A DNA stretch of 44,321 nucleotides. It comes from Hyphomicrobiales bacterium. GTDB lineage: Bacteria; Pseudomonadota; Alphaproteobacteria; Rhizobiales; BM303. The notes under the pieces are model-generated. The model saw only the letters and a program-made list of their open reading frames with translations, did not search any database and had not been told where the DNA came from. The position numbers were made by a program, and so were the translations under genes. The stretch covers positions 1-44,321 of the forward strand of contig PKTQ01000384.1 of assembly GCA_002869085.1 (NCBI GenBank). Direction: 5' to 3'. Below, one piece after another: positions 24 to 34,560 of this stretch; the first letter of the stretch is position 1, and every line of letters starts with the position of its first letter.

Positions 24-99
<76 letters not shown>

Positions 100-2038: not shown

Positions 2039-2456
2039 ATAATATTTTTCACTGAATTTCTATTCTGTTGTTATCTTCGATTTTCGTGATATTCTGAGAC
2101 ACAAATGTCGATTTTGGGCGGGAAGCAGACTTTTGCTGCACCGGACATGAATGTCCGTTCTCACAATGGTCTCGGACGAAAAATTTAAGGGTTGAATTTG
2201 TGCTGTTGACCCGAGGCAGATAATTGGCATAGTTCCTTGAACTAGGTGTTTGATGACCAACTTAAAAATGTCCCTCATCGGACTTACATCTTACATTATT
2301 TGTGGCGGTCGAACCAAGCATGCAACGTTGTACATCAGGTCTGTGTGATTTCATTCTGATGTAGTCAGCGGAAATTTTTTCATGCCAATGGAAAACCACA
2401 CCTCAAATCCCTCCAAGTCATATTGGTAGATCAGCCCGATATCAACTTTGGAGGAC

Positions 2457-3236
2457 ATGATGATTAAGAAAACACTTGGTTTCCTATTTGGCGTAGCAGC
2501 CATCATTATAGCAAGTACTGTTTTGGCGAACACCTTTTATCCCCAACGCCTGGAAGCCATCGGCGCCTATCTAACAGCTAAAACTTTTGGTTGGGACGAG
2601 CAAACCTGTGGTTTTTACCCCGTGCAATGCCTGCAGGGTAAATATCGGATGCTTTCCGATACAGAGCGACGCCTGAGCGAAGCCATTGAGATGCTGAAGA
2701 CGGAAGAAGCGCGTGCCAAAAACCTGGTCTCCGAACAGAACTTGCTCAAGCAAAAAAACATGAGCTATCTGAAAAGTGGCCGTGAAGTCTATCTTGCAAA
2801 CGCTTCCAATCCGGATCACTCAGTTGAATTTGCAGGCCGGACATATCCGAACTTAAACAAGCTTAAATTGCAGCTAAAACTGCTTTTCTCGGAAAAGGTC
2901 CAGTTGGCCGAAAGCGCCAAAAAAGCTGCCCAGCTGGAAAAGAGGCTACGCAAGAAGTGGGAAGCATTAATGATCAGGCAGGCAGGTGTGCGTGCCGAAC
3001 GACAGATGATCCCGGGTAAGGTTGCTCTGGTCCGTGGCAATTCAACACTGGTGAATATAAGTGAAAACATCTCCATGATCGATGATCTGGTGGATAAGAG
3101 CGAAGATGGCTTGAAAGGGGCAGAAACTCTTATCGGCACCACTAAGGATCTGATGAAGTCGGAAAGCAGAATTGGAGATGACGACGCGGATCATGATGAC
3201 TTCGAAGCCTTTCTCACCAACCCAAAAGTGCAGTAA
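2457..3236 (+). CDS. N-terminally membrane-anchored coiled-coil protein (PspA/IM30-like appearance, low confidence)
   Basis: GGAGG 4 nt upstream of ATG 2457. TM segment LGFLFGVAAIIIASTVLA, then long heptad-like helical sequence and an acidic C-terminus. Confidence 0.7.
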   Translation: MMIKKTLGFLFGVAAIIIASTVLANTFYPQRLEAIGAYLTAKTFGWDEQTCGFYPVQCLQGKYRMLSDTERRLSEAIEMLKTEEARAKNLVSEQNLLKQKNMSYLKSGREVYLANASNPDHSVEFAGRTYPNLNKLKLQLKLLFSEKVQLAESAKKAAQLEKRLRKKWEALMIRQAGVRAERQMIPGKVALVRGNSTLVNISENISMIDDLVDKSEDGLKGAETLIGTTKDLMKSESRIGDDDADHDDFEAFLTNPKVQ

Positions 3237-3295
3237 AATAAGGCTGTGTGGGTGGGTGTGTTTGCACCCGCCCATGCGAGCTACCCGGAGATTGC

Positions 3296-4243
3296 ATGAT
3301 GCTGGATGAAATATATTGGTACGGAATTGGTTGGGCAAAGTTAAAAGGGAGTCTCGTAAAAACGGCAGTGGCACATGGTTCAGATTTTCTCAACCAGCTG
3401 GCAGCATACGAAGATCCTGATAAAGCAGCGCGTTCATTCTTGGAGAAATATCGTCAAGAAATTCAGAAACTATCTCGTCAATTTAAACATAACAATATGT
3501 GGTCAATTGCGCTGGGTTTGCTCTTCGATGATGATCGTTTCGTGAAAGGAGTGTTGAGAGATCTGAAAGCCCTGTCCGGAGAGAAATTAAAACGTGATGG
3601 CTCGAAACTCGAGGCCGAACAGGCATTTGGTAGATTCGTCACATACTATCTGCTCGACTCCATTCAGGCACTCGATCCAAAAGCTGCCTACCAGCACAAA
3701 AAATGGCGCCGAATAAGAAAACTAAGCAAGGAAATCGAGAGAGAGGGATTTCCATTTGGCCCTGGTGAACGCTGTGCGGACGAGCACATTTCGCAAGTGC
3801 TTGATCGAATTCAAATGGATTTTCCGGATGATCACAACCTTCCTAAAACATTTGAAGGTATCAAAAAATATTTTTACCGCTATTGCGACGATTGTGGGTA
3901 TCCCTCAGCGCAGGAAGTGGGATGGCTCATGTCAGATACAGGATACGCTCCAGACGCTACTGAGTGTGTCGACCACCTCTACCGTCGCGAACCTGAACTC
4001 GCTGAAGCGGTAATGGTGAAATGCGGCTATGTCCTCCCGAACACTGGGTCAATGACAGCCGAGAATTACCGCGAAGAAAACAAACTATCCTTGGGAGAAT
4101 TCAGAAAGCGGATCAAGCAGGCCTTGGAGAAATTACGGGAGTGCGTACTACGGGCCATCTTCGTAAAAAACCGCAATGTTTTGAATTTCGAAGACTACGC
4201 CAAGGCAATTGCCCGCGAGAATGGAGATCGCCATGACAGATGA
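3296..4243 (+). CDS. hypothetical soluble protein (315 aa)
   Basis: GGAG 5-8 nt upstream of ATGATG at 3296. Co-directional with its neighbours. No motif recognised. Confidence 0.65.
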   Translation: MMLDEIYWYGIGWAKLKGSLVKTAVAHGSDFLNQLAAYEDPDKAARSFLEKYRQEIQKLSRQFKHNNMWSIALGLLFDDDRFVKGVLRDLKALSGEKLKRDGSKLEAEQAFGRFVTYYLLDSIQALDPKAAYQHKKWRRIRKLSKEIEREGFPFGPGERCADEHISQVLDRIQMDFPDDHNLPKTFEGIKKYFYRYCDDCGYPSAQEVGWLMSDTGYAPDATECVDHLYRREPELAEAVMVKCGYVLPNTGSMTAENYREENKLSLGEFRKRIKQALEKLRECVLRAIFVKNRNVLNFEDYAKAIARENGDRHDR

Positions 4244-4784
4244 TAAGAAAAGCTTGTCACTTTTAGCTATGATCCTGGCCGATCAGCCTGAAACATCAGA
4301 TGTAGCCGACATTTCCCAGGCTCGTATGTATGAAGCCTTGACCAGCGGTCCTACCTTCACTGAACAGGAGAAACAGAGTCTTTGGCTTTCCCCTACGATC
4401 CGGAATACCTATTTTGGACTCAAGAGGAAAATACTTGCCGAACAGCAAGCGCGGATCCAAGAGGCCGGTGTCAATATGCACGCGTTTCCCAAGGCTGCGG
4501 CGGCTGAAGCAAAGGAATTCATTGTAGAAGCTGACGACTTCAAGGTGATTGTTATCCAGTCTAAGGTGGACAAAAACATCTGGTACCTCACGCTCCAGCT
4601 AAAAAAGAAAATGAGAGGTGCAATTTACCCAATGTCTACCATCTCCCTCGTTGATAGTGAAGGGCTTGAATGGCTTTCAGGACGCCCTGATAAACATGGT
4701 GAAACCAATCAGATCTGGCCACACAAGGGGATTTCTCCCGATCAACTGATTGGCAAAGTATCTCTCGAGATCAATGCGTTATGA
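4233..4784 (+). CDS. hypothetical protein (183 aa)
   Basis: ATG 4233 preceded by GGAG. Overlaps the stop of the upstream gene by 11 nt, which suggests translational coupling. Confidence 0.6.
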   Translation: MTDDKKSLSLLAMILADQPETSDVADISQARMYEALTSGPTFTEQEKQSLWLSPTIRNTYFGLKRKILAEQQARIQEAGVNMHAFPKAAAAEAKEFIVEADDFKVIVIQSKVDKNIWYLTLQLKKKMRGAIYPMSTISLVDSEGLEWLSGRPDKHGETNQIWPHKGISPDQLIGKVSLEINAL

Positions 4785-4806
4785 GCAGTTGGAAGTGAGG
4801 ACCACC

Positions 4807-7542
4807 ATGATCAATATTAGCGAGCGGATGCACGCAAACAGAGATTTGATTGGTAGAGTTGAATATGAGCTAAGAGAGGGATTGAAAACGTTAGTGGAAT
4901 TTCGCTTGCGAAGGAAATTCAAAGAGAACTGGAAAAAGGAAGTTGATGATATTCTAGGAGGGAATAGTGCAAATAAAAATACGGTCTATGTATCTCGCGA
5001 TCCAGTTGGGGACCTTCAATGGGATTGCACGGCTCTACTAAAGATAATCCAAAAGAGATCCTGGGAAATATTTCCAAACAAGCTGCAAAATGAAGCAAGA
5101 GACCTAGCGTATAATTTACGAAAATATCGCAATGATGAACCCGGCCATGAAAAGACTAGGCGTATTAATTATTCAAATGCAAGGGTCAACAAAACCATCA
5201 ACATGACAATCGAGCTGCTGGAGTTGGTCAAGCAGGCCTCTATAGCCTTCAGCTGCCAGTACGGTGGCATTGACGCGGAAAAGGCAATCAAAGAAATCGA
5301 GAGGCATGTCGAAGAACTCAAAAACAGGCGGAGAAACAATGCTGAAAACACAGGAGACAGCGCCAACGCTACTCCAAAAGATACCGAGCACCAAAAAGAA
5401 GGTTTGAATTCACCAGAAGAAAGTCCAAATCGGAAAGAGTATCGGAGCTCTGCCTTTATTACGAAACAACATGAAAAAGGAGCTGTTCTCTTTACGATAG
5501 TAGAAGCCGGAACACCTTTTTATGGCTCAATCTGGTGCGAAGTAATTGAGCGCGACGAACAGGTTAATCATAACGTCCGAGCGTTTGGTCCAGATGAGAA
5601 TTTGGAACAGATCGTGGTCGACGCTAGATGGAAGGAAACTAGGGGGAGGCACACCGGATTTGACAAGTTTGTTTATGCGTATTTTGATCCACGCAGTTTT
5701 ACCGGGAGAAGTTGTGGGCTCGCTCTTGCCATCGCCGACAAAAGGGCGCGCTATGATCCCGAAAACCTTCTGGATATCCCTGTCCTTGTCGCCACCGGAG
5801 ACTTGCCGATCGACGGTCATGGAAAGGTGATCGGTATAAATCACTTCAAAGAAAAGCTGAGCCTTGTTGATGATACCCTGAAAGTGCCGGCTCAGTTCAT
5901 TTTTCCGAAGGCGAATCGACCGCGGCAGGGCACTGAAGAATTCAGCATACTTGAACGCATCAAGGCTAAAGGTATCATTTGCCGTCCTGTTGAGAATATC
6001 AATAATCTGTCAGATCTTTGGACAGCACCTGAAGACAGAGCCAAGACAGACGACAAGACTAAAACCCACAAGCCTCATGAGATCTCAACATCTGAGTCTT
6101 TGGACGTGAAGGCCCATCCATTTTCCAAATATGCCTGGGTGGGTATGGCTGCTGGAGTTCTCGGTATTGGGGTCGTCACGCTACTGGCAGATCGCTGGAT
6201 GTCATTTCTCCCCGATCCCGTCGCTGAAGCAGCGCGAACGGAAAGACTGACAGCAATTGAAAACGCCTACAGCCATGTGACTGCTATTTCTGCGAAATCT
6301 TGCAATGATCTTGTCTCAGCCGTTGATCGACTGACGCTGGAGGATAGCGGTTACCTCAATCAGAGCCACAAGAAGGCGATAAGCCAAAGCGATGACTGTC
6401 GAGCCAGGCTGAAGCAAAGCCAGTCTGTTCTGGCGAGCTTGATGGCAAGCGTTAAACAGGCCGGCACTCAGCCCAATCCGGATAGCGATATCAAAGTGGT
6501 TGAAATTTTAGCTAAGCTTGATTTTGTCGATCCTGCGTCTCTCACTGCCGGACAGGGCAATGCCTATAAATACGCCCAGGGCGCAAAAGGCCGTGTCGAA
6601 GAGGCACGTACGCTCATCAAGGCACTGGGGCCATTGCAGACCGTTGATGAACGGTCCACAGCGAAAGCCTGCCAGGACGTACTCGCTGCCAATCAGAAAC
6701 TGGACCAATATGGCCAGCAGTATCTTAAGCACTCCGGATACGATATGGAATCTTCTGTGCGCCTCTGTAACCAGATGGCGATCGCCAGTGCCGAGCGCAT
6801 CGCCAGGCTTGAATCAGCCATTGCAGCGGCAAAGAAGAGACCAACTCTTGAGAGCTATTCACAAATGATCGAGGTATATGACGGGCTCAAGATCTATGAT
6901 AGGTCGCACCTTGAAACCGGCGTGACTCAATTTGTTGAGACAGGCAAATTGAGCCACAGGCAATACAGGATGCAGCTGGAAGGCCTGAACAAGACCCTGA
7001 GGGCCTGGAGGTCCAAACCGGCGTCAGCCACGCTGTTTGAGGTGATCTCATCATTGGACAGGCTCCTTGCTTCCGAACGGGAAGGTATCGCTTCAGGAAA
7101 CCTGCAAACAGTCAAGGATGCAATGGCCGTTCGTACGAGGGCCAACAGGAAAGCTAACGCAATCCAAAAGGGTGAAATTTCCAGTCTGCGCTGGTTTGTT
7201 CGTGATATTGATGGTGCTGACATTCCAAACGGCTTAGCCGGCTCCTTAAGACGCTTGTTGCATCAGTCAGGCCTGAAACTGGCACAGAACATTGACGACA
7301 GCGATATTGCCATAACCGTATCTTTATCTATGCGCTCGGCGCTCACGAATGTCGGTCAGGTCAATGTTCATGGCGCCATCGTGAATCTAAATATGCAAGC
7401 GGCCTGGACCGTCGACAACGAAGTTCTGTTCATAGAGAACGGCTCAGCCAATGGCACAAGCACGCTGAGTGCTGAGAGAGCGAGAGACCAAGCCTACCAG
7501 AAAGTGATGGAGAAGGTTGTGTCGGTTCTATCAGAGAGGTGA
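4807..7542 (+). CDS. multidomain protein: N-terminal HEPN-like domain + Lon (S16)-like protease domain + one TM helix + ~440-aa helical C-terminal region
   Basis: HEPN Rx4-6H motif YRNDEPGH (nt 5128-5148) preceded by LLKIIQKRSWEIF (Swt1-like HEPN look). Lon-like Ser/Lys dyad context FTGRSCGLALAIA (nt 5704-5718) ... VLVATGDLPIDGHGKVIGINHFKEKL (Lys ~5848-5856) ... FIFPKAN. TM helix AWVGMAAGVLGIGVVTLLA (~6133-6190). Confidence 0.75.
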   Translation: MINISERMHANRDLIGRVEYELREGLKTLVEFRLRRKFKENWKKEVDDILGGNSANKNTVYVSRDPVGDLQWDCTALLKIIQKRSWEIFPNKLQNEARDLAYNLRKYRNDEPGHEKTRRINYSNARVNKTINMTIELLELVKQASIAFSCQYGGIDAEKAIKEIERHVEELKNRRRNNAENTGDSANATPKDTEHQKEGLNSPEESPNRKEYRSSAFITKQHEKGAVLFTIVEAGTPFYGSIWCEVIERDEQVNHNVRAFGPDENLEQIVVDARWKETRGRHTGFDKFVYAYFDPRSFTGRSCGLALAIADKRARYDPENLLDIPVLVATGDLPIDGHGKVIGINHFKEKLSLVDDTLKVPAQFIFPKANRPRQGTEEFSILERIKAKGIICRPVENINNLSDLWTAPEDRAKTDDKTKTHKPHEISTSESLDVKAHPFSKYAWVGMAAGVLGIGVVTLLADRWMSFLPDPVAEAARTERLTAIENAYSHVTAISAKSCNDLVSAVDRLTLEDSGYLNQSHKKAISQSDDCRARLKQSQSVLASLMASVKQAGTQPNPDSDIKVVEILAKLDFVDPASLTAGQGNAYKYAQGAKGRVEEARTLIKALGPLQTVDERSTAKACQDVLAANQKLDQYGQQYLKHSGYDMESSVRLCNQMAIASAERIARLESAIAAAKKRPTLESYSQMIEVYDGLKIYDRSHLETGVTQFVETGKLSHRQYRMQLEGLNKTLRAWRSKPASATLFEVISSLDRLLASEREGIASGNLQTVKDAMAVRTRANRKANAIQKGEISSLRWFVRDIDGADIPNGLAGSLRRLLHQSGLKLAQNIDDSDIAITVSLSMRSALTNVGQVNVHGAIVNLNMQAAWTVDNEVLFIENGSANGTSTLSAERARDQAYQKVMEKVVSVLSER

Positions 7543-7685: not shown

Positions 7686-8756
7686 ATGAATCCGATTATT
7701 ACTAAAATTAAGAATGCCTACCTTATAATAATATATATTATTTCATTTACTTCAATATCAATTACTATTATGATATTCACCACGTTATCTTCAAGGGCGC
7801 AAAACATCAACAATTCCATATACGATATTATCTCACAGCTTCAGCGCGGCAATGTTAAAACCGTAGCGGTACTTAACTTCGTTGACGTAAGGGGGCGTGT
7901 TAGAGCCCTTGGTAAATACCTTGCTGAGGAACTGTCGATTACGCTGGTCAAAAGTCAAGATACAATCAAAGTCATAGACCGCGGGAATCTCAACCGTTTA
8001 TTGGATGAGCTGAATCTGTCTGAGTCCGGCCTGATAAATCCTGAGAACGCTAAAAAACTAAGTAACATATCTGGGATAGATGCCCTCATTTTTGGCAGCA
8101 TAGTTCCTACGGGCGATAGCTATCGGTTGCAGTTGAGAGGGATCTCCGTTGGTACGGCTGAAGTGATTGCGGCTGCGGGCTTGGATATAAGGGGTGCGGA
8201 ACACCTGAAAGCCTTGTGGAGAGATATTGTATCCTTGAATAATAGTTACGCCATCAAATCCAAAGATGGGTCAATGGCCGCTGAATCAGGCATATCCAGG
8301 AATGATCATGTTAAATATAATGAAAGGTTGCAAGTTAATTTGATAAACCTATCGAGGTCACAGAAAATTGTTTACGGCCAGAAGTTTTACTCTTTGAACT
8401 CAACATTTTCTGTTAAGAACTTGGAGAATAAACCCGTTGAGATCATATTCGTGAATAAATATTACTTAATGTATCAGGATCTATCAGGTCTAACATGCTC
8501 TCCCACCAGCGACTGGGGACGAATTGAGACCAACCTGGGAAAAGCGAGTTCCGCATCTGCTTTCGGCTACGGCAAAGGACAGATGATTGGTCCTGGTGAG
8601 GAATTTATGGTCGTTGTGAAGAGTTTAAATTGCCCAGCCCCAGCAAAACAGGGTAAGGGTAATTTTTCTATAAAAATGCTTTCGAAGAACGAATCAAATC
8701 GAACATTTCAGGAAAGCTTTAACTTCAGAGATATTGAGTTAACAGGAACTCACTAA
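7686..8756 (+). CDS. membrane-anchored protein with CsgG/FlgO/LpoB-like domain
   Basis: N-terminal TM YLIIIYIISFTSISITIMIFTTL, then VAVLNFVDVRG..LGKYLAEELSITLV..VIDRGNLNRLLDELNLSESGL..GIDALIFGSIV, which is the pattern of the CsgG/FlgO/LpoB fold. The C-terminal ~170 aa are unassigned. Confidence 0.7.
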   Translation: MNPIITKIKNAYLIIIYIISFTSISITIMIFTTLSSRAQNINNSIYDIISQLQRGNVKTVAVLNFVDVRGRVRALGKYLAEELSITLVKSQDTIKVIDRGNLNRLLDELNLSESGLINPENAKKLSNISGIDALIFGSIVPTGDSYRLQLRGISVGTAEVIAAAGLDIRGAEHLKALWRDIVSLNNSYAIKSKDGSMAAESGISRNDHVKYNERLQVNLINLSRSQKIVYGQKFYSLNSTFSVKNLENKPVEIIFVNKYYLMYQDLSGLTCSPTSDWGRIETNLGKASSASAFGYGKGQMIGPGEEFMVVVKSLNCPAPAKQGKGNFSIKMLSKNESNRTFQESFNFRDIELTGTH

Positions 8757-9103: not shown

Positions 9104-9250
9104 ATGAAAGCATCGAGGTTCACGGACGCACAGAAGGCGTTCATCATCAAACAGGGCGAGGACGGCACGCCAGTGGCAGAGATTTGCCGCAAGGCGGGGA
9201 TCAGTCAGGCGACCTATTTCAACTGGAAGAAGAAATATGCCGGCCTGCTT
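9104..9250 (+). pseudogene. IS3-family transposase OrfA, N-terminal remnant
   Basis: MKASRFTDAQKAFIIKQGEDGTPVAEICRKAGISQATYFNWKKKYAGL is a typical IS3/IS407-type OrfA HTH. Homology stops after ~49 aa and no OrfB follows. Confidence 0.7.
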
Positions 9251-9346
9251 CGCCTGAGCTACGCAATGGCTCCGCTCAGCAGGCCTTGACGGAAACCAAA
9301 TCAACGGAAATAAACGTGAACGGATTTTACTAGCAAATGGCCCGGA

Positions 9347-9637
9347 TCAGGGGGCTGGGTCAAGTTGCATGTCCATTTTATGGGCAAAATCATTCCGCAG
9401 TTTTCCCAAAGCCTTCAAAGATTCCTGAAGTTCTTCATGCAACCCCATTGCAACTGCGAGAGTAATTTTCTGGTGGTAACTCAAATTCATTGAACTCAAA
9501 TGTCTTGAGTACGGAATAAGCTGATCGAGCAATTCATCCAAAACGCTTTCAACAAAAATATGAGAGCGAATGACAACACCTAACTCATCCTCACCCATGA
9601 GTAATTTATAAAATTTGTCTGCCTCTGGATCGTTCAT
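9347..9637 (-). CDS. small MtlR-like HEPN domain protein (96 aa)
   Basis: YHQKITLAVAMGLHEELQESLKALGKLRNDFAH has the HEPN RNxxxH motif in the MtlR-like context. AGAGGTGG lies upstream of ATG 9637. It sits 42 nt downstream of the helicase gene. Confidence 0.7.
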   Translation of the reverse strand: MNDPEADKFYKLLMGEDELGVVIRSHIFVESVLDELLDQLIPYSRHLSSMNLSYHQKITLAVAMGLHEELQESLKALGKLRNDFAHKMDMQLDPAP

Positions 9638-9679
9638 TGCCACCTCTATTTCACACACACATGAATATATAATAGGGTA

Positions 9680-12217
9680 TCAAGCCTTTCGCTGTGCCAT
9701 TTCACGTAGGCTCGTCCCCGCTAGACGATAGAATAATTTGTCTATGTCCCATGAACTGTCGTCGCAAAGTTCACGTGTTCTTGGGGAACGTTCCAAAGGA
9801 ATGTGGCGACGAAGATCACTAACTAAGGCAAACAATTGATTTTGAAGCTCAACAAGACTGCTAGGCAAACAAATCTTCATAGCGTTTGACGGGTTACCGC
9901 GCGCTTCGATCGATCCATCCGGACCTACATAGAGAAGACCAAGGCAAGTGCTGTCCGGATAGTTATCGGTGATCCAGCTCAGGTGATCGTGCCCTTGTGA
10001 TATATCCTTCTTCCAGTAGGTAGCTGGGTTATCCTTATCGGTTTTGAGTTCGAACGCTATACATTGCGATGATGGCTCATCCACCCACAGGACATCTGGT
10101 CCGGTTCCAACGTCATTGTCCGGGCGAGTAGCCACGAATCCGAGAATTTCTCCTAGGACCCTTGTCGCTTCTTCCATTCGTCGTGTTGAAGCTCCACTCA
10201 AATCCATGAGCTGTGTGCGCCAGCGCCCAAACTCGCGATCAAAGTGTTCATTTAACGTCAATCCAACCAACCAATCGACATTGCGCGCGAACTGTGAGGC
10301 GTCGTCTCCAAGAGTAGCTGTATTTCGAGGACCAGGTCTCCGTGGAAGAGCAATATTGTTACCCAGCCGGTTCATGGCCCGACGATAGGCCAAGTGAGCA
10401 CTGTCTATATCTTCCTCAGCTTCCAAGGCAGCGCCAACCCAAACAGATTGCCAGCCAGAGAGTACTGGATCTACATGTCCGGTAGCCTCCGCAGCAGAAT
10501 CCAGAATGTTTCTTGCTTCCGTAACATCTCCGTTCCACATTGCGGCTGCATAAGAAGCCTCGGCAAGTGCGGCAGCGACCATTTGCTCTTCAGCCTCTTC
10601 CGCACGCTGAACTTGATCCTGGTCGAGATCGCCCCGTTGGATATTGTCGCCGTAAAAGTCAAGCCAGGAAGGCTCACGCGATAAAACTGCATTAATCGTT
10701 TGCAGAACAGCATCACCCTCCTTAATTTTCATACCTTCCTGAACAGTACGTCCCAATAGAATTTGCCGCTGTAACAACTGCGGAAGAAGGGCGACATTTC
10801 GGTCATTGTTAAACCACGAATTGAGTTCGGTTCCAACTATAAGAAAGGCGCCGTAGTCGTTTCTCCCTCGATTGATTCGACCGAACAACTGGACAAGTCG
10901 ATTGGCGATGCGCGTGGAATGCAGATTTAGCATTCGGAGGAACTCCCACTGATAGCGCTCTATCAGGGAAGCGCCTGATGGTAGTCCATCCATCACCATA
11001 ACGCGGCAAGTGTCGTGCGGCAGGTCGATACCGTCGACCCGGGAAACAAGAACAAATGCGCCATCAGCGGATCGTCGAAAAGCTTCAAGCTCTACAGAGA
11101 AATTCTGTGCGGCAGGGGGCGCCGCCAAATCTTCCCAGTTTCTTGCGGCTGTATAGCTCGGTACTGCAATAAGCACCTTCTGTTTGCCGCAAATCCGTGA
11201 GACAAGGTCGGATGAAACTCCTCCAACAATATTGCGGCCAAACAGGATCAAGCGCTCACCGTTTCCGGCGTCGTTATCCGGTTCAATTACGATATCGGGT
11301 AACCTGCCGAAAGCTCGCACAATATCTGTCTTCGACTTCAGTGTCGCAGATAGATAGACGCGACGGATCGGCCGTTCGAAGACATCGAGTGCGAGAGAAG
11401 GAAGAAACGGTGGCGCTAGCTCGAACATGCCACGACTAAAGAGTAACGCACAACAATCAAGTTTGTCCCGTAAGTGTGCGAAAGGAAATTTAAGATTATC
11501 ATCATCATGGACTCCATGACTGTGCAATAGCGTCAGAAGTCGATCACGACGTTCTGCAAGCCCCCCCGGAGCAGCCATCACGATCGAGGGGTGTTCGCCC
11601 GTCAGACTATCCTCGAAGCGTCCCTCAATACGAAGGTCTCGAAAATGGGGACGAAAAAGTTCAGCGACTTCGTTGAGCAAATCCGGATGTTCCCGCCCGG
11701 AAACAGTCAGAGTGAGAGAGCCACGGAGGATTGCTTCTGCGACGTGCGCATCATCAAAAATGACGGCACCGGGAAAGAACCTGCGCCTGATAGCGCTCAG
11801 CCCGTTGAAGAGGGCGTGATACGTGGTGATACAGAAGCCGCGCCCACTTTCGAAAAGATCGTTGCTGAAATTGGACCGTACTCTAACAGTATGGTCCAAA
11901 CCTATCCGCAAAGCTTCCTGAGACGTCTGATTAACGAGGTCAATAGTTGCACAGACGTAAATGACGTTTTCAATACCTTCATTCACAAGGCTTTGTGCCG
12001 TCAGTAGACCAACGAGGGTCTTGCCAGCACCTGTATTCAACGAGACCAGAACGTCGTTCCTGTCGCGCGCGTCATTCCATTGAACAAGTGCCTCCGCTTG
12101 GCCGCGCCATAGATCGTTTGGCGTACCTGGTAAATTGGGCAGGCGCTCAAATATCTTAATGGGGTCAGTAGGCTGTGCTGCCGTCAACGGCGTACCCAGT
12201 TTCGAAAAATCCATCAC
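9680..12217 (-). CDS. SF2 (DinG/XPD-like) helicase fused to C-terminal PD-(D/E)xK nuclease-like domain (845 aa)
   Basis: LNTGAGKT (motif I), VIFDDAHV (motif II), YLSATL (III), SRVDGIDLPHDTCRVMVMDGLP (DinG/Rad3-type C-terminal signature), QLFGRINRG (VI). C-terminal GPDVLWVD ... IAFELKTDK. Confidence 0.85.
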   Translation of the reverse strand: MMDFSKLGTPLTAAQPTDPIKIFERLPNLPGTPNDLWRGQAEALVQWNDARDRNDVLVSLNTGAGKTLVGLLTAQSLVNEGIENVIYVCATIDLVNQTSQEALRIGLDHTVRVRSNFSNDLFESGRGFCITTYHALFNGLSAIRRRFFPGAVIFDDAHVAEAILRGSLTLTVSGREHPDLLNEVAELFRPHFRDLRIEGRFEDSLTGEHPSIVMAAPGGLAERRDRLLTLLHSHGVHDDDNLKFPFAHLRDKLDCCALLFSRGMFELAPPFLPSLALDVFERPIRRVYLSATLKSKTDIVRAFGRLPDIVIEPDNDAGNGERLILFGRNIVGGVSSDLVSRICGKQKVLIAVPSYTAARNWEDLAAPPAAQNFSVELEAFRRSADGAFVLVSRVDGIDLPHDTCRVMVMDGLPSGASLIERYQWEFLRMLNLHSTRIANRLVQLFGRINRGRNDYGAFLIVGTELNSWFNNDRNVALLPQLLQRQILLGRTVQEGMKIKEGDAVLQTINAVLSREPSWLDFYGDNIQRGDLDQDQVQRAEEAEEQMVAAALAEASYAAAMWNGDVTEARNILDSAAEATGHVDPVLSGWQSVWVGAALEAEEDIDSAHLAYRRAMNRLGNNIALPRRPGPRNTATLGDDASQFARNVDWLVGLTLNEHFDREFGRWRTQLMDLSGASTRRMEEATRVLGEILGFVATRPDNDVGTGPDVLWVDEPSSQCIAFELKTDKDNPATYWKKDISQGHDHLSWITDNYPDSTCLGLLYVGPDGSIEARGNPSNAMKICLPSSLVELQNQLFALVSDLRRHIPLERSPRTRELCDDSSWDIDKLFYRLAGTSLREMAQRKA

Positions 12218-12262
12218 TTAACCAATCCCATAAGTTGCTCCTTATCCACGGGGCGAGAGCCC

Positions 12263-14272
12263 TCAATCTTCTGCTGTCACTCCTTCTTGATCGCTCTCCG
12301 GCTCAGGTTCCCGGCGATCGTCGCCATCAGAGACTACGCCTGAAAGAAACTTATGATACTTGTCTTGCAAATGCTTCAGAGCTGTATCGTCGTCCACTTG
12401 GTGTTCCAGCTTCTCTTGGAAGAACTGAAGACGCGCCTTGTTTTCCTCTATGATCTGGGCCCAAGTCTTGATCCCGACGGAGATATTGTCCTTAGAAGAA
12501 ATGACACCACGGTCATCCATGCGGTACGCAGCATACTGATCTATATCGTCTGATATTGCCCAAAACGTCCATTTGACACCGCTCACCGTGTGGAACCGCT
12601 CATCATTTGCAACGCTGATCGCATATTTCTCAACTTGTGTGATTTCTTCATGGCCAATTTTTATCTTGGGCCGTTTCAGCTCAACGATCAGATGTTCGAG
12701 TTCATCAGCTCTGTGCCGACGAAGTGCTCTAGACAGCATGAGGTCAACAATCCCACGCTGCTGGCTGATATGTCTGACCGGCTTGTCGATAACAATGTCA
12801 TCTCCAAGAATCTTCCGGTGTTTCTGCAATACTGCGGTGAGCCCCTTATCGCTGACAGACAGGTTGTATTCCTCACCGAACAGCCAAGTGTTGTCCTCGA
12901 TGATCTTGTGAAGTTGCGAACGCTCTTTGAGCCGCGCTTTCATATCTGGGTCAAATAGGACCTGTTCCAATCCGGTGAGAAACTTTAGTCGGTCCGCGAC
13001 GATCTTGGCGGCACTGATGATTGACGAGAGGGATGCTTCCCGCAGCAATCCGGCGAGCTCTTCCTGTTTCCGCTTTGGCAGCCCCAGAACCTCGCTCATG
13101 ATTATTTGGAGGTCTTCCGGACTCTTTTCGATTGCTGTACGGAGCATCCGAAGGTCGAACTCTTTCTTCTTCGGCGGGGCACTCTCGAAGTCCGGCATGT
13201 AATCGCTTGCCGTTACGGCCAGGATATCGAATACCTTGCGCTCAGCATTCTCCAGTGACGACTTGGCCTCGCCTACATACGGGTAGACATTCTGCGCCTT
13301 CCATGTCTCGACAACCGTTCGAGCACGCTTAGCAGCGCGCTCCCGGAAATAAGCCTTGATAGTTTGTTGCGCTTCTTCGATGCAACCGTTGAGAAAAGGA
13401 TTCATTTCGGCGAGGTCGAGCTGTGCCTCACCATGCAGTTTTGTGATAAATGGTGATTTCAGATAGGCCGAAAAGTGAAACTCGCCGATGTGAAACCGCG
13501 TCGTTACTTTTGAAAGCGGAAAGCCCTGTTCTGTACACAGGTAGAGACCACGAGTCGTCACGTTCTGCCATTCAATGATCTCAAGCTCCACTGGATGCAC
13601 TGCGCTCTCTTCATCTATGTCGTTCAGGTGCGCAATGTGGGTATTGGCTATTGCTATAGCGGGATCTACCTGCCTGCCCTCATACAGTATCGAAATATCC
13701 CGATAGTCTTTCAGGTAAAGTGCAAAAATCTCGGATAATTCCTGCACGGCATTTTCGGGATCAAGGGACCGGTATTCGTGGTGCAGTTCCGATATCTCAA
13801 TCTCTACTCCGGTGCTTCCAGCTTCGACTGCTTCCTCGTCCGAGATACGAACTTCGCGAATATTGTCTTCCAGCATGGTGATATCGTAGGCGCGCAACTC
13901 ACCTGTGTTCGTACGATATGCGACACGCCAATCGGCGACTCGGCCAAGGGCAAACACTTTGAACCGGCCACGGCCTTCATAACCGTGCAGCATACGCTTC
14001 TTCGTTTTAGTTTGACCACCAGGTTTTTTCCACGAGCCACCGAGGCGCGTGAACAAATGCGGAGCATCGTCGTAGGGAATGCCGTCTCCGTTATCACGGA
14101 CAATGATTTTGCTCAATCCCAGTTCGCCGTAATTGAGCTGCACATCAACACGAGCTGCGTCAGCATCCAGTCCATTCCATATTAGTTCGGCGATAGCTTG
14201 GACCGGCTTCGCCTTCGACTGCCGCGCTAGGAAGTCTGGCTGGACCTCAACCGTATATCTGTGCTCAGTCAT
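12263..14272 (-). CDS. GHKL (MORC/paraMORC-like) ATPase fused to C-terminal Shedu/DUF4263-like PD-(D/E)xK nuclease domain (669 aa)
   Basis: Bergerat motifs ELIWNGLDADA (N box), VRDNGDGI (G1), HGYEGRGRF (G2). C-terminal LHKIIEDNTWLFGEEY ... GIVDLML ... LIVELKRPKIKIG ... QVEKY. Confidence 0.85.
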   Translation of the reverse strand: MTEHRYTVEVQPDFLARQSKAKPVQAIAELIWNGLDADAARVDVQLNYGELGLSKIIVRDNGDGIPYDDAPHLFTRLGGSWKKPGGQTKTKKRMLHGYEGRGRFKVFALGRVADWRVAYRTNTGELRAYDITMLEDNIREVRISDEEAVEAGSTGVEIEISELHHEYRSLDPENAVQELSEIFALYLKDYRDISILYEGRQVDPAIAIANTHIAHLNDIDEESAVHPVELEIIEWQNVTTRGLYLCTEQGFPLSKVTTRFHIGEFHFSAYLKSPFITKLHGEAQLDLAEMNPFLNGCIEEAQQTIKAYFRERAAKRARTVVETWKAQNVYPYVGEAKSSLENAERKVFDILAVTASDYMPDFESAPPKKKEFDLRMLRTAIEKSPEDLQIIMSEVLGLPKRKQEELAGLLREASLSSIISAAKIVADRLKFLTGLEQVLFDPDMKARLKERSQLHKIIEDNTWLFGEEYNLSVSDKGLTAVLQKHRKILGDDIVIDKPVRHISQQRGIVDLMLSRALRRHRADELEHLIVELKRPKIKIGHEEITQVEKYAISVANDERFHTVSGVKWTFWAISDDIDQYAAYRMDDRGVISSKDNISVGIKTWAQIIEENKARLQFFQEKLEHQVDDDTALKHLQDKYHKFLSGVVSDGDDRREPEPESDQEGVTAED

Positions 14273-14573
14273 AAGCGCAGTCCTTCTGTATCCCCGATCT
14301 GCCGCAGCGTGCGGATAATGTAATGGCGGACGGCCTGTTCACGGCTTTTGGCTTCGCTAAGAATGAGCAAACGTTCTCAAGACTTCTATCTAGTGTCATC
14401 GCAACCTGAATCCTGTCGTCGATTTCCATGAAAGGCAAGGTAAATCAGCCACATGAGTGATCGCTTTGTCGGCACACCTAGCAGCGATATAAATGTCCGT
14501 GAACACCTCATCAACAGACATCATACAGAGTCGACAACTTAGTGTAACTCACAATTGAAATTCACTAGAGTTA

Positions 14574-15150: not shown

Positions 15151-16437
15151 ATGGTTTTCAAAGATGAGTTTTGGGCAGGCTTCCTTTTTGCTTTATTAAT
15201 CGTACTTGTTATAGCCATTTCTCTATGGTTTGACATAATTGAAACTATACGAGGGCACGCGTTCTTGTTCGTGGGCATTGTTTGCGGTTTTGTATTATTT
15301 GGGATAGCTCTTATCGCACTTCGAGACAAGATATTCTATTTAATATTTGGAAGATCAATAACAAACATATCAGATGTTATTCATGATTTTAAGAATGTTG
15401 CCGATGCGTTAAGAAGTGGAAATGGAAATATAGCAACTGAGAGGGCAGAGCTTGCCCTCATTGATACTTTTTTATTTTATTCGAGGGGAAAAGTACTAAA
15501 GTGGGGGCTTGGCAGTTTAATTGGTATTATTATTGGAGTTGCTGGCATTTCAGGGTCGTTTTTGCTGTTTGAACAAAACAAAAAACTCTCGGAACAAACA
15601 ATTCTTCTAGCACTACAAAACGAAAAGTCTGACATTCAAAACGCTATAGCCTCTCTTGGAATGGTGGACGTTATCCGTTCCCGGCTATCGAAACCGAAGC
15701 CAAAATCGATTTTTGACCACAAAGATAGTGGTTTGCAATTCCATGTTGATGGCGACTGCTCCATTGTCTCGTCTAAAGGAATAAAGTTGTGGGAGACTTC
15801 AAACCCATCTCAGATAGATGCTGTCGTTGCGCTGGCAAAATCAAAAGAAATTGGCGATCAGGTAGTCGCCGCTCTTATCCATCTAACTCAAGATGAGAAC
15901 CAGAGCGTTGTATTGGGCGCGCTAATTTCCCTTGAAAGGGCGGGCAAAATTAATCTCATTGAAGAGATTAGTGTTTCAAAAGTTGCTGCCTTTTTGGAGA
16001 TTCCTTCGTATGCGGGTTTGATTCGTATTTTTGATAGTATTGTGAATGGATTTTTATGTGATAAATGCAGAATAATGCTATATCGATCTCAAATAACAAT
16101 GCTTAGTAAGGAAGTTACACTTTCAGAAGTAAGCGGTTCAATAGTTAATAATAGTACGCACATATTTAATAGAGACAAAGATATTTTCAAAGAAGTAACC
16201 GTGAGAACAGGACACTCCTTTCCGAATATCTTCATAGGGCCGGGTTTCCGTTTTGAGGGTGACAAATATCCATTCGATCTAACGTCTTCAGTAATGGATC
16301 AATCTCATTTCGTACATCTGATGGTAAATCCAGATCCAAAGAAGAACTGTTCAGCTGCGAAAAAGTTCACCATGAACAATCGATATTTTGACTACTTAGA
16401 ACAAGATAGAGAAAAGATTGTTGATCCGAGTAAATAA
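15151..16437 (+). CDS. hypothetical multi-TM membrane protein (428 aa), AT-rich cassette
   Basis: Long ORF. N-terminal hydrophobic helices (FLFALLIVLVIAISLWF, FLFVGIVCGFVLFGIALIAL, LIGIIIGVAGISGSFLLF). Visibly lower GC than its flanks. Confidence 0.6.
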   Translation: MVFKDEFWAGFLFALLIVLVIAISLWFDIIETIRGHAFLFVGIVCGFVLFGIALIALRDKIFYLIFGRSITNISDVIHDFKNVADALRSGNGNIATERAELALIDTFLFYSRGKVLKWGLGSLIGIIIGVAGISGSFLLFEQNKKLSEQTILLALQNEKSDIQNAIASLGMVDVIRSRLSKPKPKSIFDHKDSGLQFHVDGDCSIVSSKGIKLWETSNPSQIDAVVALAKSKEIGDQVVAALIHLTQDENQSVVLGALISLERAGKINLIEEISVSKVAAFLEIPSYAGLIRIFDSIVNGFLCDKCRIMLYRSQITMLSKEVTLSEVSGSIVNNSTHIFNRDKDIFKEVTVRTGHSFPNIFIGPGFRFEGDKYPFDLTSSVMDQSHFVHLMVNPDPKKNCSAAKKFTMNNRYFDYLEQDREKIVDPSK

Positions 16438-16463: not shown

Positions 16464-17912
16464 TTGAATGAATTATTTTTGCGGATTGGATACATACATT
16501 CGCTAGATCAACTTACCTCGATTTGTTTCAATATCCACCAACATGTCAGATACCGTCCTAAACGGCACCCTAAGATAAAATTACCTCCTGAGAGCCCCTC
16601 ACAAGCTCGCACAGCGGCCTTTCCTAACTTTCGGAGTTGTGGGTGCCAGTGTCAGCGCCAGGTTTGGGGCGGGGAACAACCCTTGCGGCTTTGGCGTGGT
16701 GCTCGACGCCGGCACCTCTATATCATCGGCCAGACCATGACGGGTAAATCAACCCTGATGCGGTCACTTATGGCTCAAGACATTTTGGCTGGACATGGCT
16801 GTGCTCTCATTGACCCTCATGGGGATCTGGCGCTTGAGGTGATGGAAGCTGTGCCGTCCAACCACATTCGGGACGTGATTGTGCTTGATCCGTCTGACCT
16901 CAAATATCCGGTGGGGTTTAATCCGCTTTACCGGGTGCCAAAAGATGAACGTGATGCGGTAGCGGAAAATCTGACAGCTACCTTTGCTCATTTGTGGCGT
17001 GATAGTTGGGGGCCGCGCCTAGAATACATCCTCCTCAATACCATTTCGGCTCTCTTGGATGCACCCGACAATTTGCGGCCGACCATGGTCTCAATTCCAC
17101 TCATGTTAGTGAATGAAGAATACCGGGAGAGGGTTTTGCGCCACGTGCAAAATCCTCAAGTGCGGGAATATTTCTACACCGAGTTCTCACGGTGGAAGGG
17201 CCGGCACCTGGATGACCGGCTAGGGCCGATTCAAAACAAGATCTGTAAGTTTCTCACCAACACAGCGGTGCGAAATATCTTTGGGCAGTGGAAGCCCAGT
17301 ATCGATCTTGATGAAATCGTGGCAAGAAAGCAGATTCTGATTGTGAGATTATCTAAAGGTCTTGTGGGAGAGCTGACCGCCAACATGGTTGGCTCTTTTG
17401 TCGCTACTGGCTTTCAACATGCCGCTATGCGCCAGGCCAAGCTACCAGAAGGGGAGAGGCCTGATTTTGATCTTCATATTGATGAGTTCCACAATTTCAC
17501 CACTGACGCTTTTGCGGACATTCTCTCTGAAGCTCGCAAGTATGGCCTCACCCTTACCATCGGTCATCAGTACATTGATCAAATGGCTGAGGAGGTGGCC
17601 GACGCAGTCTTTGGTAATGTCGGTAGCATCGTGTCCTTCCGGGTATCAGCTCGTGATGCTGAGCGTTTGGCCAAGGAGGTTGGCACTTATCACCCTCGGA
17701 TTTTTGGAGATCTTGGGGTGGGGGAAGTGGTGGCCAAACTCCTTAAGCAGAACAACACCTCATATTCGATGCGCGGCCGCACTGAACCAGATGCCGTTAA
17801 AATCTATGGTCGCAGCGACTCCATACGTCGCCTGTCGCGAGATCGCTATGGCCGTAAACGGTCAGTGGTTAAAAAGAATATTAGTAGGTGGATTGGACGG
17901 CAGAAGATGTAG
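16464..17912 (+). CDS. TraD/VirD4-like (type IV coupling protein-like) P-loop ATPase; N-terminus uncertain
   Basis: YIIGQTMTGKST (Walker A), FDLHIDEFHNF (Walker B), ARKYGLTLTIGHQYIDQM (TraD/TraG C-terminal HQ motif). The first ~85 codons (TTG start, Cys/Arg-rich) look non-native. The true start, or a frameshift, probably lies near 16690-16730. Confidence 0.75.
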   Translation: MNELFLRIGYIHSLDQLTSICFNIHQHVRYRPKRHPKIKLPPESPSQARTAAFPNFRSCGCQCQRQVWGGEQPLRLWRGARRRHLYIIGQTMTGKSTLMRSLMAQDILAGHGCALIDPHGDLALEVMEAVPSNHIRDVIVLDPSDLKYPVGFNPLYRVPKDERDAVAENLTATFAHLWRDSWGPRLEYILLNTISALLDAPDNLRPTMVSIPLMLVNEEYRERVLRHVQNPQVREYFYTEFSRWKGRHLDDRLGPIQNKICKFLTNTAVRNIFGQWKPSIDLDEIVARKQILIVRLSKGLVGELTANMVGSFVATGFQHAAMRQAKLPEGERPDFDLHIDEFHNFTTDAFADILSEARKYGLTLTIGHQYIDQMAEEVADAVFGNVGSIVSFRVSARDAERLAKEVGTYHPRIFGDLGVGEVVAKLLKQNNTSYSMRGRTEPDAVKIYGRSDSIRRLSRDRYGRKRSVVKKNISRWIGRQKM

Positions 17913-22303: not shown

Positions 22304-23878
22304 TTATCTTTTACTCCCAATTCTTTCTATTTCTTCCAACGCTTTGTTCAGCTTTTCAACTTCTGCTTCCTTCCAAAGGCCATGATTCATCTTATCCCTG
22401 ATTTCTAAAATAAAACTTACTATATAACCAACGGGAATCCCAAAAATCAGCCCCCCTAGAAGCCCAGTGGCAAGGCCATTACCTGCACCGTCGCCGCCAG
22501 CTGAGCTTAAAAGAGATAGAATTATTGAAATTGCTATAACTACAGGCCATGATATTTTATGTCTTTTATTTTTTGATTGTGATGACTTCACATCCCTAAT
22601 GGACTTGTTTATTTTTTTCTTGATATCATCAAAACCTTCGCGGACATCTTTCTCTATATAGTATATTTTATCATTGTAATTTAGGAGCTCACCTAATGAT
22701 AGATTGCTTTCTTTTTGGAAGTACTCTTTCATTTCTTTCAGAAAGTCAAAATTTGAATACTTATAAGCGTACTTCACAGACGTTTCAAGGTGATGATAGT
22801 TTATTTCCCTAAAGTACTTTACATATTGATCAATTTGTGTGCGAACTTCCCTAATACACTCCTGGATTACATCTTCAATATAACTCTTGTTTTTGAGTAA
22901 GTCTGGATCAGAAGCGGCTCTAATCCCATACATGTGATCGACCAATAAGCACCCTTTAAAATGTATCTTCCCGTTTACTGTATCTTCCTCATGAAAATGA
23001 ACTTTTGCAAGGTCATATTTACTTAAACCATCATTAGGGTTGAGAGTGATTGATTGGCGAAGATACTTTTTTGCATCTTCAAAATTGCCGATACAATAGC
23101 ACGCATACCCTGCTAGGCCATAATTTCTTGAGCTTGCCTTTTTATCCACCCCGGATGAATACTTAGAAGCCAATAGAAATTCCTCAATGGCTTGTGGAAT
23201 ATCAAAATATTTATCAGTACAATTTTTGTAATTGCCAAGATGTATCAACCCTCTGAGTGTGTAGAATCGATGCTCTAGTCTATATCCCGCATTGTTATTG
23301 TCTCCAGTAATCGCTTTGTTGATGTATTCGTAAGATTCATCTATCAGATTCCTATGAAATGCATCCTGTGCTATGCTAAACTGCTCGAATGCCCATGTTT
23401 GGTCAGGCGTTTTTGCAACTTTCAGCAATTCATCCAGGGTGTCATTCATCCGGCTCATCTCTGCAGCCATTTCAGCAAAACCTAGATCAAGAATAGATGC
23501 TATATTGTCTAGTGAATCGCCTACCCGATCCATAGAGGTAGAAAGTTGTTGGAATCCAGCAGATACCTCATCTGATAAACTATCAAGAGAATTAATAATC
23601 CCTTCTTGCACCGCAATGTTTCTACTTGCTAACTCCTCATTTGAGGTGATTAATTTGCAAATATTCTTATCAACATTCATTTCGATTCGATCGAAATGGC
23701 TTTTGCTCTCTAAATATTCTTGGTAGCTGAATCCATCTCTGAAATAGTATGGGTGCTGTGGTCCAAAATAGATACCTAGATCTGATTTGCTCACTTTTTT
23801 TCCAGTTATATTCTTTAAGGACGAGAATAATTTTTGAAGCTTGATAGAGCATGATTCTAAGATACTCATGCTGCCCAT
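22304..23878 (-). CDS. TPR-containing protein with C-terminal double TM segment (524 aa), AT-rich cassette
   Basis: TPR-like YGLAGYACYCIGNFEDAKKYLRQSITLNPND. Coiled-coil N-terminal region. C-terminal ISWPVVIAISIILSLLS and GLLGGLIFGIPVGYIVSFIL. Confidence 0.65.
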   Translation of the reverse strand: MGSMSILESCSIKLQKLFSSLKNITGKKVSKSDLGIYFGPQHPYYFRDGFSYQEYLESKSHFDRIEMNVDKNICKLITSNEELASRNIAVQEGIINSLDSLSDEVSAGFQQLSTSMDRVGDSLDNIASILDLGFAEMAAEMSRMNDTLDELLKVAKTPDQTWAFEQFSIAQDAFHRNLIDESYEYINKAITGDNNNAGYRLEHRFYTLRGLIHLGNYKNCTDKYFDIPQAIEEFLLASKYSSGVDKKASSRNYGLAGYACYCIGNFEDAKKYLRQSITLNPNDGLSKYDLAKVHFHEEDTVNGKIHFKGCLLVDHMYGIRAASDPDLLKNKSYIEDVIQECIREVRTQIDQYVKYFREINYHHLETSVKYAYKYSNFDFLKEMKEYFQKESNLSLGELLNYNDKIYYIEKDVREGFDDIKKKINKSIRDVKSSQSKNKRHKISWPVVIAISIILSLLSSAGGDGAGNGLATGLLGGLIFGIPVGYIVSFILEIRDKMNHGLWKEAEVEKLNKALEEIERIGSKR

Positions 23879-27173: not shown

Positions 27174-27220
27174 GACTGAAAATCCGCGTGTCGGTGGTTC
27201 GATTCCGCCCCTGGGCACCA
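27174..27220 (+). repeat. 47-nt exact direct repeat of the tRNA-Phe 3' part (= nt 53-99); att site bounding island A
   Basis: GACTGAAAATCCGCGTGTCGGTGGTTCGATTCCGCCCCTGGGCACCA is identical at 53-99 and 27174-27220. The tRNA 5' half is absent here. Confidence 0.9.
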
Positions 27221-32227: not shown

Positions 32228-32233
32228 GGACCA

Positions 32234-34537: not shown

Positions 34538-34560
34538 GACCGCTGTGAAGCGATAGGAGA

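Follow-up and report, generated by a model that had tools for sequence, protein, structure and literature searches.

The three closely spaced genes at positions 9347–14272 of contig PKTQ01000384.1 from a Hyphomicrobiales bacterium (44,321 nt, analysed as a whole and called the window below) most probably form a mosaic stretch of a tRNA-Phe island, composed of two independent single-protein anti-phage systems and the fragment of a dead gene. A preliminary description of this DNA had interpreted the genes as an undescribed sensor/effector system of three components. This interpretation does not hold, because genes 1 and 2 fall in known single-gene kinds, synteny is lacking, and gene 3 is truncated. 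The trio had also not been recognised as a named system; profile and structure searches put gene 2 in Hna (also PDC-S28 in PADLOC) and the architecture of gene 1 in paraMORC3/type I-D Shedu. A defence role is very likely for both genes. The mechanisms proposed below are carried over from published work on Hna and on the Shedu protein VcSduA, and we also infer that the genes are expressed and active in this host. With this locus, Hna and paraMORC3/type I-D Shedu, both known families of single-gene defence, gain divergent members.

All three co-directional minus-strand open reading frames (ORFs) of the preliminary description were found at the coordinates claimed for them, and every motif quoted was located in its protein. 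Gene 2 (9680–12217, minus strand) is an ORF of 845 aa. Its translation more probably begins at the ATG at 12214 (844 aa), where homologues start and where the database call for the gene, P0121 (844 aa), does as well. The motifs LNTGAGKT (residues 60–67), VIFDDAHV (152–159), YLSATL (288–293), SRVDGIDLPHDTCRVMVMDGLP (392–413), and QLFGRINRG (443–451) are followed by GPDVLWVD (706–713) and IAFELKTDK (720–728). Pfam matches were obtained to ResIII (E 2.4e-12), DEAD (4.7e-8), and Helicase_C_2 (7.2e-6), and there are XPD-Rad3 matches too. In essence the earlier domain reading holds: the protein joins a DinG/XPD-like superfamily 2 (SF2) helicase to a PD-(D/E)xK nuclease at its C-terminus.

Over its full length, the gene 2 protein matches the PADLOC model PDC-S28 with 1104 bits; PDC-S28 is a single-gene “phage defence candidate”. 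Among solved structures it has one strong end-to-end relative, a “Helicase ATP-binding domain-containing protein” represented by PDB entries 10uj, 9yhn, and 9ykj, which come from a study of S. meliloti Hna (PMC13381803). A phmmer comparison with this 845-aa protein gave an E-value of 2.3e-52 across query residues 1–771, and the gene 2 family profile matched the same structures (10uj_A/9yhn/9ykj) with an E-value of 3.7e-77 over residues 2–830. The catalytic residues D713, E727, and K729 of Hna (GPDNLW...FECK) align with D708, E723, and K725 of gene 2 (GPDVLW...FELK). Across 23 homologues, G63, G65, K66, and T67, the D155-D156-A157-H158 box, P707-D708, and E723-L724-K725 are invariant. Between motifs I and II there are just two cysteines, C89 and C129, and thus no four-cysteine Fe-S cluster. 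From the PDC-S28 match, the end-to-end alignment to Hna, the aligned catalytic residues, and the invariant motifs, we assign gene 2 to Hna, a named and characterised single-gene system, as a divergent member.

Hna has been described as a single-effector abortive-infection system present in ~2% of genomes, with two SF2 helicase domains and a C-terminal PD-(D/E)xK nuclease domain but without an Fe-S cluster (PMC13381803). The protein is an auto-inhibited dimer maintained by ATP, its activity is that of a 3′–5′ single-stranded DNA (ssDNA) exonuclease unleashed by the phage single-stranded-DNA-binding protein, and the K729A substitution abolishes nuclease activity (PMC13381803). When hna alone is put back, phage resistance is restored (PMC12445080). 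The sources named for the system are Sather et al. 2023 and Hooper et al. 2026 (PDB 9yhn/9ykj/10uj). Gene 2 shares with Hna its length (844 and 845 aa), the HEL1-HEL2-NUC domain order, the GAGKT and DDAH motifs, the absence of an Fe-S cysteine cluster, the aligned PD-(D/E)xK residues at the C-terminus, and the character of a stand-alone, horizontally mobile gene. It differs in being divergent, the S. meliloti plasmid homologues being ~35% identical, and in lying downstream of a GHKL-nuclease gene in the window and in two relatives. By homology with S. meliloti Hna, the gene 2 protein would rest as an ATP-bound, auto-inhibited dimer. A phage single-stranded-DNA-binding protein would disturb this dimer and set free the 3′–5′ ssDNA exonuclease, leading to abortive infection.

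Gene 1 (12263–14272, minus strand) encodes 669 aa. Its N-terminal part carries ELIWNGLDADA (residues 29–39), VRDNGDGI (58–65), and HGYEGRGRF (96–104), and its C-terminal part LHKIIEDNTWLFGEEY (454–469), GIVDLML (507–513), and LIVELKRPK (528–536). The Pfam models HATPase_c_3 (E 2.9e-11) and HATPase_c (1.7e-6) are matched, together with HSDR_N_2 below threshold. In an alignment of 22 homologues, the invariant GHKL positions are E29, N33, and D36 in motif I, D60 and G62 in motif II, G97, G100, and G102 in motif III, and G155 in motif IV. The AlphaFold model has a predicted local distance difference test score (pLDDT) mostly of 70–90 over residues ~20–380 and is poor over 466–535. Foldseek aligned residues ~1–450 with the N-M domains of TRAP1/Hsp90, the N-terminal domains of MutL/MLH1, and MORC2, at E-values of 1e-10 to 1e-8 over 330–450 columns. 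These structural matches indicate that the GHKL ATPase is followed by a predicted transducer-like (S5/“N24”) middle domain.

The C-terminal part was compared across 58 such domains (43–90% identity). All of them carry D510, the E531-x-K533 pair, and Q546-x3-Y550, with conservation of at least 90% at E467/E468. In this alignment the E-D-ExK plus QxxxY pattern reads as the signature of RecB-like PD-(D/E)xK nucleases. HSDR_N_2, a model of the PD-(D/E)xK clan, was found in 22/22 family members scanned, with a best E-value of 4.9e-5 that falls under the curated cut-off. Of the earlier reading of gene 1, the GHKL ATPase and the C-terminal PD-(D/E)xK nuclease both stood. On the specific identification of the nuclease as a DUF4263/Shedu core, the results are mixed. 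Pfam DUF4263 gave no match at E≤1 in any of the 22 members, and PADLOC SduA was matched weakly in 5/58, with a best E-value of 0.003 and Cas4 next. Searched as a profile against the PDB, the alignment of the nuclease domain returned nothing even at E≤10. A model of the nuclease domain by itself, built from 83 sequences, reached a low-confidence pLDDT of 58; with it, Foldseek ranked the B. cereus Shedu structure 8ti8, the best match among nuclease folds, second, at a non-significant E-value of 0.08. What points to Shedu is therefore the architecture, the motifs, and the weak matches.

This architecture is known from three descriptions. The paraMORC3 family was described as “typified by an additional C-terminal domain”, in which E-D-ExK motifs occur, and its nuclease-bearing members are often standalone (Iyer, Abhiman & Aravind 2008; PMC2292703). 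Type I-D Shedu consists of a GHKL N-terminal domain and a middle domain (Gu et al.). The third is that of VcSduA of V. cholerae (A1552VC_00276), a validated single-gene defence, which E27A and K557A abolish (PMC12137116; Nat Microbiol 2025). Gene 1 shares with paraMORC3, type I-D Shedu, and VcSduA the GHKL motifs I–IV, the Hsp90/MutL/MORC-like middle region, and a C-terminal E-D-ExK motif of the restriction-endonuclease fold; E27 and K557 of VcSduA occupy positions similar to E29 and K533. As in paraMORC3, genes of this type are standalone or stand at the tail of restriction-modification (R-M) operons, and their distribution is wide and patchy. The difference from Shedu lies in the nuclease, which matches HSDR_N_2 below threshold and not Pfam DUF4263. 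We therefore read gene 1, by its motifs, as having the paraMORC3/type I-D Shedu architecture of GHKL ATPase, middle domain, and E-D-ExK nuclease. Because DUF4263 is unmatched, SduA is weak, and the nuclease model is of low confidence, we file it under the paraMORC3/GHKL-nuclease kind, with strict Shedu (DUF4263) membership as a possibility.

By analogy with the validated protein, gene 1 would probably form a dimeric GHKL clamp, in which ATP binding and hydrolysis gate a C-terminal RecB/Shedu-like DNase directed against invading DNA. As with VcSduA, no partner would be needed. The family comprises more than 1300 homologues (clusters), whose RefSeq label is merely “ATP-binding protein”. No PADLOC model recognises gene 1 as a whole protein, and the family is missed both by PADLOC v2.0.0 and by the Pfam DUF4263 model, so that current defence annotation probably under-counts GHKL-nuclease proteins. 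This gap is worth bearing in mind when defence genes are annotated.

Gene 3 (9347–9658, minus strand) has 103 aa when read from a GTG and 96 aa from the ATG at 9638. Its motif LGKLRNDFAH occupies residues 84–93, with the HEPN signature at R88-N-D-F-A-H93. A word-index search for homologues returned the protein itself alone, and an exhaustive HMMER scan was needed to recover the family. The 872 homologues are typically 160–185 aa long, and gene 3 aligns to their first ~95–100 residues alone. Its stop codon lies ~8 residues past RNxxxH, homology runs out at window positions ~9359–9362, and the C-terminal half is absent anywhere in the window. Invariant positions of the family alignment, in gene 3 numbering, are D24, G27, R31, E37, R88, N89, F91, and H93, the last four forming R-N-x-F-A-H. 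No Pfam model captures the family above threshold: gene 3 scored E 0.04–0.13 against HEPN models and its full-length relatives ~5e-4, under the cut-off (HEPN_RiboL-PSP, HEPN_Cthe2314), and one distant member, at locus L103 of the related loci described below, passed the Pfam MtlR threshold (27.8 bits versus a cut-off of 25.2).

The preliminary description had called gene 3 an intact MtlR-like HEPN. Its RNxxxH is present, and the family guess was reasonable given the weak profiles, but the domain is not complete, since the C-terminal ~40% is gone. Gene 3 shares with small MtlR/HEPN proteins the invariant R-N-x-F-A-H (Rx4H) and the weak HEPN matches; it differs from them in spanning just the N-terminal ~60% of the family length, and it is unlinked to gene 1 or Hna. 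As aligned, it would correspond to the first ~97 of ~160–185 residues (~60%) of an MtlR/HEPN-like protein truncated at its 3′ end, and it is most likely non-functional. Both this truncation and the restriction-gene scar beside gene 1 described below had been overlooked. Distant members of the gene 3 family near gene 1 homologues in loci L103, L104, and L108 were considered as a sign of linkage and rejected, as they are 28–32% identical, lie 1.3–2 kb off, and differ in orientation.

Co-occurrence of the genes was assessed by tblastn of all three proteins against 160 related loci, of which 73 were anchored on Hna (38–85% identity) and 87 on gene 1 (45–88%), with flanks of up to 10 kb on each side. 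Among the Hna-anchored loci, gene 1 was found in 0/73 and gene 3 in 0/73, and no neighbour was conserved. Among those anchored on gene 1, Hna was found in 1/87 (L081) and gene 3 in 0/87. The trio is thus not conserved as neighbours, one of the outcomes that the preliminary description had named as refuting its proposal: gene 3 is in 0/160 loci, and the pair of genes 1 and 2 recurs solely in near relatives, L161/L162 and L163. In L161/L162, gene 1 and Hna are 83% and 81% identical to those of the window and are paired across a 48-nt spacer, and in L163 they are 86% and 82% identical and paired across ~105 nt. Hna is found without gene 1 in L008/L011 (85% identity), L164 (80%), and L009 (77%), and gene 1 is found without Hna in L001 and L166 (88%) and in L168 (85%).

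In view of the paired loci, an alternative is that gene 1 and Hna form a cooperating two-gene system in this sublineage, in which Hna unwinds or resects DNA nicked by the gene 1 protein, or the latter regulates Hna. We regard this as unlikely, but several observations speak for it and weigh against the independence of the two genes. The order and orientation of the pair are the same in the window, L161/L162, and L163. The short spacers claimed earlier are real; that between genes 1 and 2 (12218–12262, minus strand) measures 45 nt, or 48 nt when gene 2 is started at 12214, and a spacer of ~48 nt is found in the window and in L161/L162 only. The spacer contains no terminator-like hairpin and, on this sequence criterion, the two genes are probably co-transcribed. 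Its 3′ part is conserved with L161, while the L163 spacer is a different one of ~105 nt. DNA homology between the window and L161 extends from the gene 1 start codon to the gene 2 stop (14273–9676) at 74% identity, and stops before gene 3. Since order and spacer were maintained in L161/L162 despite this level of nucleotide divergence (~25%), and since gene 1 lies upstream of Hna in L163 too, the pair has persisted for some time and could be under joint selection.

A further adjacency, the second and independent of the first, occurs in L081 (597–7979), where a gene 1 homologue (77% identity) lies between an upstream type III Res gene and a convergent Hna-family gene. This Hna is 25% identical to gene 2, and ~10 nt separate the stop codons of the two genes. 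Also in favour of cooperation, gene 1 homologues often adjoin restriction enzymes with SF2 motors (hsdR, type III Res, type ISP), and a partnership of MORC/paraMORC proteins with SFII helicases in R-M operons was proposed by Iyer et al. (PMC2292703). The locus resembles such operons, and Hma, in that a GHKL ATPase gene stands beside a gene of the SF2 helicase type among defence functions, and in the traces of a one-time type I R-M operon upstream. It differs from both in that no methyltransferase is left, the helicase is the self-sufficient Hna and belongs to none of the helicase families linked to MORC, and the linkage is not conserved.

Against a cooperating pair, both families are overwhelmingly solo, and one member of each architecture suffices alone experimentally. 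The unpaired Hna of L008 is 88–89% identical to the Hna proteins of L163 and L161, which are just 84% identical to each other, and the unpaired gene 1 of L166 is 88% identical to gene 1 of L163. Judged from these identities, both genes have copies without a partner that fall within the range of the paired ones. Moreover, gene 1 of L163 (1186–3144) has an in-frame TGA at codon 378, which is Arg in the window, next to an intact Hna; this may be a true pseudogene or else a mistake in a long-read assembly. Upstream of gene 1 homologues there are also type IIG enzymes that lack a helicase, as well as unrelated genes, and in L166 other defence genes fill the downstream slot.

Among related Hna loci, a different neighbourhood was observed. 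In L009 (4171–10535), L164 (2163–8535), and L165, which represent two contexts, Hna (77–80% identity) is preceded by one and the same pair, a type IIG enzyme of 1020 aa (N6_Mtase/Eco57I) together with an ORF of 213 aa, and in L008 an MmeI-type enzyme and a 212-aa ORF lie a few genes upstream. An R-M-linked neighbourhood of this kind may recur around Hna in the subclade concerned.

The history of gene 1 is recorded immediately upstream of it. At 14275–14367 (minus strand), abutting the gene 1 start, an hsdR gene of type I restriction survives as its final ~31 codons. By tblastn, this scar matched residues 960–990 of the 991-residue HsdR of L166 (E 3e-5) and the upstream ORF of L163 (E 2e-6), and blastn gave 79% nucleotide identity across the hsdR/gene 1 junction of L166 and L001. 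Both of these loci have the gene order hsdM-hsdS-mrr-hsdR-gene 1 with 4-nt overlaps, and L163 has hsdR-gene 1-Hna. Gene 1 was originally the last gene of a type I R-M operon, hsdM-hsdS-mrr-hsdR-gene 1, of which a deletion left the 31-codon scar, and the slot downstream of it holds variable cargo, Hna being one of several alternatives. The preliminary description had argued that no methyltransferase is adjacent and that the locus hence differs from MORC-type R-M loci; this argument is undercut by the scar and by the closest gene 1 relatives, which end type I R-M operons.

In L166 (1–12613; also L167), an eight-gene array runs hsdM-hsdS-mrr-hsdR-gene 1 homologue-PDDEXK_1/RNase H-SIR2-HerA, mostly with 4-nt overlaps. 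The hsdR/gene 1 overlap is 4 nt (6001–6004), as are the gene 1/PDDEXK-RNase H overlap (8007–8010) and the PDDEXK-RNase H/SIR2 overlap, after which HerA follows. Because L166 packs distinct defence genes in this manner, tight spacing is the norm in such islands, and the co-directional proximity of nuclease and NTPase genes in a defence island does not define a system. Among the immediate upstream neighbours of gene 1 homologues are 19 large co-directional ORFs, ~11 of which are R-M or restriction enzymes (types I, III, ISP, and IIG). Gene 1 is solo in L003, L004–7, and L168, and stands at an R-M tail in L001, L166, L081, L169, and others. A specific coupling of gene 1 to SF2 helicase motors was considered and discarded, given that type IIG enzymes devoid of a helicase and unrelated genes likewise occur as its upstream neighbours.

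The scar also raises the question of whether gene 1 was an accessory of the former type I R-M system, for example in DNA looping and cleavage coupled to HsdR, and is now orphaned and possibly a silent relic. The scar itself abuts gene 1, homologues overlap hsdR by 4 nt in L001, L166, and L163 and a type ISP enzyme in L169, and R-M enzymes make up ~11/19 of the large upstream neighbours. In addition, the original operon promoter is gone, and one weak promoter-like site lies upstream. Nevertheless, we find an accessory role improbable. Many homologues are solo amid housekeeping or unrelated genes, nuclease-bearing paraMORC3 proteins are often standalone (Iyer et al.), and VcSduA, of the same architecture, defends alone. 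Gene 1 of the window is intact with all catalytic residues present, and the upstream R-M types are too diverse for one specific partnership.

A more specific form of cooperation, the main alternative left but a rather remote one in our assessment, is that gene 1 and Hna act synergistically as a co-transcribed pair retained in a small clade, originally at a type I R-M tail (hsdR-gene 1-Hna, as in L163). If this were true, nicks or ssDNA ends made by the gene 1 protein could feed the 3′–5′ ssDNA exonuclease of Hna, giving layered immunity beyond that of either gene. A Shedu-type enzyme and Hna would then be functionally coupled for the first time, and the pair would be a concrete example of the GHKL and SFII-helicase partnership predicted in 2008 and a testable case of two nuclease systems cooperating. 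Finally, a true three-component sensor/effector system, with the HEPN protein as RNase effector or regulator, would fit the co-directional genes, their 42–48-nt spacers, and the RNxxxH kept in gene 3, yet the lack of synteny and the truncation already refute it: gene 3 is in none of the 160 related loci, the two other pair-bearing loci included, the block shows no DNA homology past the gene 2 stop, gene 3 is without the C-terminal ~40% of the family length, and distant members of its family adjoin other genes, namely those of a PIN_12 protein (L108) and an H-NS-like protein (L103).

The most probable reading is that of two independent single-protein systems and a gene fragment in a mosaic island. 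As claimed earlier, a tRNA-Phe island is real: the tRNA-Phe gene lies at 24–99 (plus strand), and its 3′ part (53–99, plus strand; attL) is repeated exactly over 47 bp at 27174–27220 (plus strand; attR). A tyrosine integrase gene (25782–27020, minus strand) occupies the distal island end and adjoins attR. The att repeats and the integrase mark out an integrative island of ~27 kb, inside which the cassette lies. The cassette had been placed between insertion sequence (IS) debris on both sides, which is correct for the gene 3 side, where a remnant of an IS3-family orfA (helix-turn-helix transposase; 9104–9289, plus strand) adjoins the truncated end of gene 3, and incorrect for the gene 1 side, where the hsdR remnant and no IS is found. 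The translation of the orfA remnant, MKASRFTDAQKAFIIKQGEDGTPVAEICRKAGISQATYFNWKKKYAGLL, reads as the N-terminus of an IS3-type OrfA by our own inspection, without a profile match. By megablast, the cassette had no counterpart in E. coli genomes or plasmids.

Further genes were noted in the window. At 2448–7542 and 7686–8756 (both plus strand), four co-directional, partly overlapping ORFs of 262, 331, 191, and 930 aa are followed by a gene for a CsgG/FlgO-like lipoprotein. The four ORFs have no Pfam or PADLOC match except a Swt1-like HEPN at the N-terminus of the 930-aa protein (E 1.9e-8). As a candidate for defence, this unrecognised cluster in the same island may be of greater interest than the cassette itself. 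A 524-aa TPR protein (22304–23878, minus strand), located between IS481-type and IS3-type transposase genes, matches PADLOC LeoBC weakly (E 3.9e-6).

A gene resembling a type IV secretion coupling protein (16464–17912, plus strand; TrwB/TraD/TraG domains) points to an integrative conjugative or mobilisable element, either as the ancestor of the island or as a source from which the island took up a part. Its neighbour, a 428-aa ORF at 15151–16437, had no family match. Beyond attR, the block at 28797–35118 (plus strand) has a higher G+C content (0.58–0.61) and encodes an HlyD-type adaptor, an ABC exporter with a C39 peptidase, a second ABC exporter, and a cyclic-nucleotide-monophosphate-binding protein. 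The block resembles a module for exporting a bacteriocin or a peptide and seems to have a different origin.

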